This document shows positions 1,559-1,810 of a stretch of DNA of 4,348 nt, piece by piece. The notes beneath the pieces were generated by a model. That model was given only the letters and a program-made list of their open reading frames with translations. It was not told where the DNA came from and did no database searches. The DNA comes from a virus. Lineage: Duplodnaviria; Heunggongvirae; Uroviricota; Caudoviricetes. Numbering within the stretch: the stretch's first letter is position 1; each line of letters begins with the position of its first letter. The stretch lies in the IMG/VR virus record IMGVR_UViG_2671180884_000017; one strand, given 5' to 3'. A program made the position numbers and the translations under genes.

Positions 1559-1810
1559 TTAAAACAAAGAACCAGCAATGCCGCCAATTACTGCTCCAGC
1601 AACAGCACCAACAGGACCACCAACGGATGCGCCAATAGCCGCCCCCGTACCAATGCCCGTACCGATATTCTGCTTGTTCTGCGCTTTCTGTTGCGCCGCC
1701 ATCTGTTTGTTCGCAGCCTCAATTTCTTCACGTCGTCTGTCTGCGTCACTTATTCCCTGTAATGCCTCACGCCGCGACTGATTTGCAATATCCAGTAAAC
1801 CGTATCCCAT
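1559..1810 (-). CDS. Small glycine-zipper membrane protein, 83 aa (charged N-terminal helix plus C-terminal GxxxG-repeat hydrophobic segment)
   Basis: SD AGGGGG then CAAT then ATG at 1810, only 9 nt after the TAA of the upstream gene. The C-terminus IGTGIGTGAAIGASVGGPVGAVAGAVIGGIAGSLF is a textbook glycine-zipper transmembrane segment. The N-terminal half is charged and helical-looking (RREEIEAANKQMAAQQKAQNKQN). Confidence 0.75.
   Translation of the reverse strand: MGYGLLDIANQSRREALQGISDADRRREEIEAANKQMAAQQKAQNKQNIGTGIGTGAAIGASVGGPVGAVAGAVIGGIAGSLF

Follow-up and report, generated by a model that had tools for sequence, protein, structure and literature searches.

An 83-residue glycine-zipper protein conserved in the virion module of short-tailed Shiga-toxin phages, a candidate accessory ejection protein

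The DNA examined in this study is a 4,348-nucleotide (nt) stretch of viral sequence (IMG/VR record IMGVR_UViG_2671180884_000017), referred to at its full length as the window, which matches the late (virion) region of short-tailed Shiga-toxin (Stx) phages of the 933W/Sp5/phi24B type. Its minus strand carries, at positions 1559-1810 (start ATG 1810-1808, stop TAA 1561-1559 in the list of open reading frames, ORFs), a gene for a protein of 83 amino acids (aa), MGYGLLDIANQSRREALQGISDADRRREEIEAANKQMAAQQKAQNKQNIGTGIGTGAAIGASVGGPVGAVAGAVIGGIAGSLF. This protein is conserved, evolves under purifying selection, consists of an N-terminal helix followed by a C-terminal glycine zipper, is encoded within a string of virion genes, is detectable in purified virions and is dispensable on Escherichia coli K-12. 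By analogy with other injected proteins, we give about an even chance (roughly 0.5) to the interpretation that it serves short-tailed Stx phages, and their relatives, as an accessory internal or ejection protein whose Gly/Ala hairpin would insert into a host membrane.

Short-tailed Stx phages spread Shiga toxin genes, and the protein bears on the question of how these phages pass their DNA and a protein of ~2800 aa across two membranes. It is the only member of its module with an obvious (predicted) membrane-inserting segment, which makes it a cheap and precise handle; a deletion mutant already exists and point mutants would be easy to make. Its importance is limited by the dispensability of the gene on K-12 and by the conjectural nature of the mechanism. 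Annotation of the ORF goes back to the 933W genome, both its deletion and its detection have been published, and it is named either 'hypothetical' or 'bacteriocin'. New in this study are the size of the family and its strict synteny, selection on the glycine stripe as well as on the turn proline, the connection with tape-measure zippers, and the finding that the 'bacteriocin' label is unfounded.

A conserved glycine zipper

The 83-aa protein is 100% identical to ST933Wp70 of phage 933W, to vb_24B_46 (gp49) of phi24B and to its counterpart in P13374, and its gene is Sp5 ORF78/ECs1240. The ORF is a genuine coding gene and not a chance reading frame, because its ratio of nonsynonymous to synonymous substitution (dN/dS) is low, its family has hundreds of members, and one of its tryptic peptides, EALQGISDADR, was identified by tandem mass spectrometry coupled to liquid chromatography (LC-MS/MS) in phi24B preparations (10.64898/2026.04.10.717836). 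The conserved frame and the peptide both lie on the minus strand at 1559-1810; two antisense ORFs of 84 and 67 aa on the plus strand (1508-1781) are a Pro/Ala/Thr-rich mirror of the Gly/Ala codons, without conservation support.

Residues 1-48 are charged (8 K/R and 7 D/E), and AlphaFold2 (AF2), run with a 121-sequence alignment, models them as one long helix with a predicted local distance difference test score (pLDDT) of 83-94; with an 8-sequence alignment the pLDDT was 56. The last 35 residues (49-83) are uncharged and comprise 12 Gly, 7 Ala, 10 Ile/Val/Leu and one Pro, with an unbroken i,i+4 ladder of eight glycines (G52-56-60-64-68-72-76-80). When these 35 residues were shuffled 100,000 times, a ladder of this length arose 14 times (p ~1.4e-4), and it arose once in 100,000 shuffles of the whole 83-aa protein. 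The initial annotation of this DNA, made from the letters alone, had described this same peptide as a charged helix followed by C-terminal glycine-zipper repeats, and the ladder and the modelled helix agree with that description.

Among 121 family representatives at 23-53% identity, the best-conserved columns of the entire protein are G56 and G72 (100% each), G68 (98%), G76 (94%), P66 (91%), and G52 and G65 (88% each), while the residues between the conserved zipper glycines vary. Conserved columns in the N-terminal part are G4, L5, A16, G19, N34 and position 30. The last of these (codon 30, ~1721-1723), within a conserved E..R...N helix motif, is Ile in this E. coli lineage as opposed to Arg in 91% of the representatives. 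Exactly one Pro is present within the last 30 residues of 125 of 136 family members, 123 of the 136 have no more than one charge in that stretch, and 96 end in Phe. Pairwise Nei-Gojobori estimates of dN/dS have medians of 0.05-0.18 in both halves of the protein, where the pairs are non-independent and the distant ones saturated. The repeated GxxxG pattern in the hydrophobic segment is thus present, non-random and conserved and, at the level of sequence, selection acts on the zipper itself, that is, on the glycine stripe and the turn proline. It had been proposed in the initial annotation that orthologues lacking the segment would show it not to be under selection; the zipper is instead kept in orthologues down to ~25-40% identity, with its glycines as the most conserved columns.

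The length of the family members varies from 78 to 97 aa, and the insertions and deletions are concentrated between the two halves of the zipper, beside the proline, so that a helix-turn-helix hairpin fits better than one long helix. E. coli prophages carry both 83-aa and 90-aa alleles, the latter with SAVPVVGTAV inserted at the turn, and the length polymorphism of the zipper hairpin was noted at loci L002, L046-L049, L051, L052, L056, L070 and L090.

The profile search suggested in the initial annotation gave a match at E 1.9e-45 to PHROG 594, which is labelled function unknown; the match is full-length, with residues 1-83 aligned to profile positions 1-85 of 85. When 1.84 billion representatives were searched by profile, 585 clusters, defined at 50% identity, were recovered at E<=1e-3 and 135 at E<=1e-10. 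They come from Enterobacterales, Aeromonadales and Vibrio phages, and nearly all are 76-100 aa long and align end to end. A scan of IMG/VR with a degenerate DNA pattern confirmed 164 relatives, the best 80 of which were examined as loci and yielded 35 distinct proteins, and a similar scan of genomes found the small gene in Citrobacter, Yersinia, Pectobacterium, Brenneria, Aeromonas, Zobellella and Oceanisphaera. With the low-complexity filter on, a tblastn search of the protein against phages aligned only residues 1-31.

Virion-gene context and published experiments

The window matches 196 phage records, of which 182 cover at least 80% of the query, and 1590 of 5426 complete E. coli genomes. 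The best phage matches (P13374, phi24B, the Stx1 phages AU5 and AU6, and phi191) span positions 1-3800 at up to 99.3% identity, and 933W and VT2-Sakai/Sp5 were also recovered by protein-level searches. The genes of interest are all on the minus strand, and in P13374 and 933W they run in the order 133-aa, 218-aa, 148-aa, 83-aa ('bacteriocin'), 421-aa and a ~2800-aa giant named 'LPD5/LPD38 domain-containing'. The spacers are 2 nt between the 218-aa and 148-aa genes, 9 nt before the 83-aa gene (AAGGGGG) and 10 nt before the 421-aa gene (AAGGAG), each with a Shine-Dalgarno-like sequence, and the same 9-nt gap is found upstream of the small gene in related E. coli loci. A consensus scan found no sigma-70-like site on the minus strand of the window, the sole site being on the plus strand, and two terminator-like hairpins (Table 1) flank the four-gene coupled string.

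The slot is fixed across the 35 distinct IMG/VR loci: a gene of ~118-133 aa, one of ~191-254 aa (mostly 207-219), one of 124-196 aa, the small gene (78-90 aa), one of 420-540 aa and a giant of more than 2000 aa; the gaps on either side of the small gene measure -1 to 13 nt. The coupled gene string of the initial annotation is therefore found in the relatives as well as in the window. The corresponding lengths are 212/124/85/467/3191 aa in Aeromonas phage phiARM81mr and 131/201/117/77/467/3066 aa in Vibrio phage D460, one of ~100 related Vibrio phages. The 77-aa protein of D460 ends in ...GASVGGVWGAVIGAGVGFIGSLF, the two genes upstream of it are homologous to the 218-aa and 148-aa genes of the window, and homologues of the 218-aa protein are found in both Aeromonas and Vibrio phages. 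In D460, an HNH endonuclease gene on the opposite strand (L108, 10539-11330) sits exactly at the otherwise tight junction of the small zipper gene with the 467-aa gene and splits it. At another locus (L079) the small gene is followed by 1531 nt without a called plus-strand ORF at the expected position of the ~460-aa gene, which may be disrupted or divergent there.

That this is a virion or ejection-type module, as the initial annotation had supposed, is supported by the four flanking genes, whose products are abundant virion proteins of phi24B that are absent from its cryo-electron microscopy (cryo-EM) map. In a preprint on the structure and proteome of this phage, gp47, gp48, gp50 and gp51 were among the more abundant proteins of CsCl-purified virions, had no density in the map and received no structure-derived copy number (10.64898/2026.04.10.717836). 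The estimates in that work are ~24-73 copies per virion for gp50 (structure-based 'ND'), ~14-41 for gp51 and ~18-56 for gp48, and gp47 was proposed by the authors to be an encapsidated ejection protein. In the distant relatives JC1 and Bcep22, a giant DarB-like protein and its neighbours are also virion-associated. In phi24B lysogen cultures, expression of the giant gene tracks prophage induction.

The late genes of Sp5 have been removed singly by in-frame, marker-free deletion (Mondal et al. 2016, PMC5155283). The 421-aa (ORF79) and giant (ORF80) genes are among the nine whose loss abolishes plaques and lysogeny, and phages without ORF79 lose infectivity with their DNA still packaged. Loss of ORF76 (218 aa), one of two mutants with reduced efficiency, lowers infectivity and lysogenisation. 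ORF78 (ECs1240, 83 aa) was deleted by a construct of its own, the primers of which match the window (PMC5155283).

The 83-aa protein itself was found in the phi24B preparations as 'gp49 E. coli bacteriocin' (6 counts in the batch digest, 13 overall). Like Lom, Bor and a regulator, it was dismissed as a contaminant 'based on functional annotation' (10.64898/2026.04.10.717836). When the authors' normalisation was reproduced, which returned the values in their table, gp49 came to 3-9 copies per virion, which is the level of the hexameric nozzle (6) and above the measured value of the true 12-mer adaptor (1.1-3.2). This number is likely an underestimate because the 37-residue C-terminal tryptic peptide is, in our judgement, probably undetectable; tryptic peptides of 7-13 residues, the size range judged usable, cover 39 of the 83 residues. 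The supplement to the same work also records an unannotated 83-aa frame (16908-17156) and an unannotated Bor homologue detected at the level of gp49, and its abundance sheet lists the 148-aa protein twice, as 161 and 148 aa (10.64898/2026.04.10.717836). A proteome study of phages of enterohaemorrhagic E. coli (PMC12502783) covers major structural proteins only. No functional study of the 83-aa protein was found in literature searched by the locus tags ECs1240, Z1490, L0132 and vb_24B_46, and a literature search for glycine zippers in phage ejection proteins returned nothing.

Proposed role, resemblances and alternatives

The role that we favour for the 83-aa protein, that of an accessory ejection protein, can be set out as a series of steps. 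The protein would be made late from the tight gene string with the 218-, 148- and 421-aa proteins and beside the ~2800-aa protein, co-translation being suggested by the observed spacing and the lack of a promoter-like site. It would then be packaged at low copy (~3-20 per particle) with its neighbours, and although its detection in virions is published, its location in the T=9 capsid or the tail channel is conjectural. Upon loss of the needle at the receptor, the internal proteins would exit before the DNA. The C-terminal segment, as two GxxxGxxxG helices joined by a GGP turn, might by analogy enter a host membrane, most likely the cytoplasmic one, where the glycine faces could pack against copies of the same protein or against partner helices and so seed, line or seal a conduit for the DNA and the giant protein. 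The N-terminal motif and charged helix would remain outside the bilayer, probably docked on a partner such as the 421-aa protein. Under this mechanism, the protein would improve infection without being indispensable under laboratory conditions on K-12.

Resemblances to known systems are part of the basis for this proposal. Among the 150 best profile matches, the only long proteins that match the zipper alone are six tape-measure proteins, each with TMP_3 (PF20155) above threshold and multiple Gly-zipper_YMGG (PF13441) or Gly-zipper_Omp (PF13488) domains. Like the 83-aa family, these zippers are G/A-rich with a GGPxGA turn and GxxxG stripes (profile E 1e-10 to 1e-16). The tape-measure proteins have 3-8 hairpins built in, whereas the 83-aa protein has a single hairpin, is free-standing with its own conserved N-terminal helix, and belongs to a podovirus without a tape measure. 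The homology is confined to a low-complexity segment and may be convergent. Among the PHROG families matched by the zipper are likewise one of tape-measure proteins and one of internal virion proteins. Tape-measure proteins are described as leaving the virion before the DNA, with a channel-forming activity suggested (as cited in PMC10240207).

The Agrobacterium type VI secretion system effector Tde1 needs its glycine zipper to permeabilise membranes and to cross the target cytoplasmic membrane, and the authors of that work pointed out that tape-measure proteins have homologous zippers (PMC10240207). Tde1 is likewise an injected protein with repeated GxxxG motifs, but there the zipper sits at the N-terminus as a delivery module joined to a DNase toxin, whereas the 83-aa protein has no enzymatic cargo, and the two are likened by motif only. 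In searches of the PDB with the 83-aa protein, the family profile and the 421-aa neighbour, the sole match was a marginal one to the zipper of crAss001 gp45 (capsid cargo protein 1, 7qog chain M). Residues 117-150 of gp45, GQGAAAGASVGGPIGAIVGGVVGL, share a nearly identical GASVGGPxGA motif with GTGAAIGASVGGPVGAVAGAVIGG of the 83-aa protein (E 0.02-0.05, one short segment of an 842-aa protein). We take gp45 to be stored in the capsid of a podovirus, and the PDB entry itself names it a cargo protein. Zipper hairpins of this kind thus turn up repeatedly in proteins that are delivered into bacteria and have a membrane to contend with.

The gene also resembles those of podovirus internal proteins in its location. 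The internal or ejection proteins gp7, gp20 and gp16 of P22 and gp14, gp15 and gp16 of T7, with the small gp6.7 and gp7.3, are encoded at the distal end of the virion module, and some of the small P22 and T7 internal proteins are dispensable or merely improve efficiency. The 83-aa gene occupies the same part of the module, beside genes for internal proteins, in the slot between the gp50 and gp48 genes and two upstream of gp47. Podovirus internal proteins are present in particles but outside the symmetric structure and are presumed to be released at infection, and ejection of the 83-aa protein is predicted on that model; the PDB searches found no sequence similarity between it and podovirus ejection proteins. 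By analogy, the 83-aa protein is best filed as a putative glycine-zipper membrane-insertion element of phage-delivered proteins.

Several observations weigh against this interpretation. The hydrophobic halves are short (~15-17 residues) and marginally hydrophobic, with a Kyte-Doolittle 19-mer mean of 1.69 and an additive Hessa-scale estimate of ~+5 kcal/mol; given this marginal hydrophobicity, the hairpin is plausibly kept soluble in a complex until release. AF2 models the zipper part with little confidence (pLDDT 54-68) and as one continuous helix in the monomer. The same normalisation that gives 3-9 copies of gp49 gives 1-3 copies of Lom and 2-7 of Bor, which are host-membrane proteins and surely contaminate the virion preparation; the preparation contained host debris and gp49 had no assigned density in the map (10.64898/2026.04.10.717836). 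Because Lom and Bor score similarly and debris was present, the detection of gp49 in purified virions is suggestive, not proof. Lastly, the deletion of ORF78 is outside both the nine genes that abolish plaques and lysogeny and the two reduced-efficiency mutants (PMC5155283). The 83-aa protein is dispensable on K-12, and its absence from these lists suggests that Delta-ORF78 is about wild type. The initial annotation had suggested a membrane-penetration component of the virion. The virion-module context and the published detection in virions agree with that suggestion; an indispensable role does not stand, as Delta-ORF78 is not among the infectivity-loss mutants.

Two features of the neighbouring proteins may bear on this dispensability and on possible partners. 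The C-terminal part of the 218-aa protein contains a Gly-rich hydrophobic stretch, ASLVGAGLGAAGAYAM, followed by GGSGGSGG (the segment in Sp5 ORF76 is LVGAGLGAAGAY), with a LVGxxxGxGxxY core that is conserved in the Aeromonas and Vibrio homologues. Judged by its sequence, this stretch could act as partner to the 83-aa zipper or be its redundant counterpart, and such redundancy could explain why the 83-aa protein is dispensable. In the representative library, family residues 1-57 run straight into a protein of the 421-aa family in a 442-aa protein, P0073 (…GMGAGMGVQGLADGFLAGFNTADAAISRNKEMGLRD…); this either arose naturally, by a fusion or deletion that joined the adjacent genes, or is an artefact of assembly or of a frameshift. 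Together, the P0073 fusion and the 218-aa stretch are hints of partners.

One alternative explanation, which we regard as unlikely, is that the 83-aa protein is a tail-anchored membrane protein of the infected producer cell that is not part of the virion and reaches the preparations on membrane vesicles; there it might, for instance, organise internal-protein assembly at the membrane, tune lysis or exclude superinfecting phages. The hydrophobic segment at the extreme C-terminus without a signal peptide, a mass spectrometry signal as low as those of Lom and Bor amid acknowledged debris, and the absence of a reported infectivity phenotype for Delta-ORF78 would all suit such a protein. Its gene, however, has a fixed and translationally tight slot among genes for abundant virion proteins in phages of Escherichia, Aeromonas and Vibrio, lies outside the lysis cassette and was not among the genes detected as expressed in phi24B lysogen cultures, and the PADLOC defence models gave nothing significant for it.

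It is also conceivable, though again improbable in our estimation, that the protein is internal to the virion and that its zipper packs against proteins and not membranes, the small protein serving as adaptor, plug or chaperone in a bundle with the giant protein or with that of 421 or 218 aa, in the capsid or portal channel. GxxxG faces drive the packing of soluble helices too, the 218-aa neighbour has its own conserved LVGxxxGxGxxY, P0073 joins family residues 1-57 to the 421-aa family, and the segment is marginally hydrophobic. What argues against a purely protein-packing role is the conserved run of 35 consecutive uncharged residues, with at most one charge in the last 30 residues of nearly all members (123 of 136), and the fact that the closest relatives of the segment in Pfam are glycine-zipper families, one of which is named a two-transmembrane glycine-zipper domain.

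The NCBI product name of the 83-aa protein is 'bacteriocin', and this name is found on many of the retrieved E. coli and phage records. Class II bacteriocins and microcin V are small, Gly/Ala-rich and membrane-active, and this resemblance is the source of the database name. The match to Bacteriocin_IIc (PF10439) has 19.7 bits compared to a gathering cut-off of 27.1 (E 8.8e-4) and aligns residues 47-80 only, that to MccV (E 0.43) is also below the Pfam gathering threshold, no NCBIfam model reaches its cut-off, and none of the NCBIfam bacteriocin models gives a match at all. Judging by these alignments, the name rests on glycine-zipper composition only. The protein has no double-glycine leader, its N-terminal MGYGLLD being itself a conserved motif of the family, and neither an exporter gene (C39-peptidase ABC transporter) nor an immunity gene was found in any locus examined, where the surrounding genes encode virion proteins. 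That the phage carries a bacteriocin or another secreted toxin active on membranes, the separate effector of the initial annotation, is therefore very improbable despite the weak zipper matches and the name, since the gene is fixed in the virion module even in a phage record without annotated lysogeny genes (D460). The unfounded label caused the exclusion of the protein from the phi24B virion proteome and thereby misled an experimental study.

Other identities were considered, and an outer-membrane lipoprotein, PdsO, a holin and a lysogeny 'moron' were rejected. All Pfam and NCBIfam matches of the protein are below their cut-offs, the best Pfam match being Gly-zipper_YMGG (PF13441; 25.7 bits, threshold 28.9, E 9.4e-6), for which the close homologues P0001, P0002 and P0006 and the Vibrio protein P0037 carry precomputed matches. 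YmgG/YMGG, the SlyB/Pcp 'Rick_17kDa_Anti' lipoproteins and PdsO share the zipper hairpin motif, but the 83-aa protein scores below the cut-offs of these bacterial envelope proteins and has no signal peptide, no Cys and no OmpA domain. For an outer-membrane lipoprotein (Rick_17kDa_Anti PF05433, SlyB/Pcp) the match has E 0.64, and there is no Cys and so no lipobox; the N-terminus, as read from the sequence, is acidic and polar. The phi191 copy is annotated as PdsO, a sortase-associated OmpA-like protein, and the corresponding model (TIGR03789), the best NCBIfam match, gives 40.4 bits against a cut-off of 152.2 (E 2.6e-10), with only profile positions 29-74 of 243 aligned. A holin was rejected because the gene is in the virion module and not a lysis cassette, and the protein ends in ...AGSLF with no charge in its last 35 residues. 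A lysogeny 'moron' is argued against by the D460 record, which carries the small gene and has no annotated integrase or repressor.

Returning to the ejection-protein interpretation, a more far-reaching and speculative version, which we hold to be possible but doubtful, is that PHROG 594 represents widespread free-standing glycine-zipper membrane-insertion subunits of podovirus ejection machines. These would be the functional counterpart of the zipper hairpins of tape-measure proteins and, once ejected, would oligomerise in the cytoplasmic membrane and form or gate a pore for the DNA and the ~300-kDa polyvalent protein. If this is true, the dismissal of gp49 as a 'bacteriocin' contaminant in the phi24B proteome would be an annotation artefact.

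Neighbouring genes and other features of the window

The features discussed above are listed with their coordinates in Table 1. The start of the giant gene is ATG 213-211 in the Sp5 annotation, with GGAG before it, while the PGAP start is 13 codons earlier, at 252. The terminator-like hairpin at 231-250 is located within the 69-nt gap before the giant gene, and the PGAP start (ATG 252) falls inside the hairpin.

Table 1. Coordinates of the 83-aa gene, its parts and its neighbours in the window.
Feature	Positions	Strand	Evidence
83-aa glycine-zipper gene (Sp5 ORF78/ECs1240, ST933Wp70, vb_24B_46/'gp49', PHROG 594)	1559..1810	-	ORF list, identity, PHROG, mass spectrometry peptide
Codons 1-48: conserved N-terminal motif MGYGLLD, then charged helix	1667..1810	-	Family alignment, AF2
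Codons 49-83: Gly/Ala-rich hydrophobic segment, two GxxxGxxxG zippers around GGP turn, SLF end	1562..1666	-	Conservation, ladder statistics
9-nt spacer with Shine-Dalgarno-like AAGGGGG starting within TAA stop of upstream gene	1811..1819	-	Sequence; related E. coli loci
148-aa gene (Sp5 ORF77, phi24B gp50), virion protein without cryo-EM density	1820..2266	-	phrog_596; phi24B proteome
218-aa gene (Sp5 ORF76, phi24B gp51), virion protein	2269..2925	-	phrog_611; phi24B proteome; Delta-ORF76 phenotype
421-aa gene (Sp5 ORF79, phi24B gp48), essential virion protein without map density	283..1548	-	phrog_601; deletion; phi24B proteome
Giant LPD5/LPD38 polyvalent internal protein (~2800 aa; Sp5 ORF80, phi24B gp47), first 71 codons	1..213	-	Annotations
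Terminator-like GC hairpin and T-run between 421-aa and giant genes	231..250	-	Consensus scan
Terminator-like hairpin and T-run just upstream of 218-aa gene	2948..2967	-	Consensus scan
133-aa gene (Sp5 ORF75, phrog_610)	3019..3420	-	PHROG; 118-133-aa ORF fills slot in most related loci

Upstream of the 133-aa gene, at 3477-3617 and 3607-3764 (both on the minus strand), the virion region contains a hok-like ORF for a 46-aa toxin. Its matches are phrog_251, 'MokW-like host killing' (E 2.8e-24), and HokA NF007290 (E 9e-10, 38 bits, cut-off 89). It is overlapped by a match to a sok-like antisense RNA (Rfam RF01794), which at 37.1 bits does not reach the gathering score of 59. On these matches, the 3477-3764 region is a putative type I toxin-antitoxin cassette within the virion region. 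A mosaic junction lies near 3800, as the best phage records match positions 1-3800 only. Beyond it, a 169-aa ORF (3819-4328, minus strand) resembles the C-terminal receptor-binding end of lambda J/tail-fibre proteins (PF12421 E 0.002; phrog_496 E 4e-7), at a position where 933W carries lom. A few E. coli prophages match the entire window, in each case with an insertion carrying a YadA-like gene.

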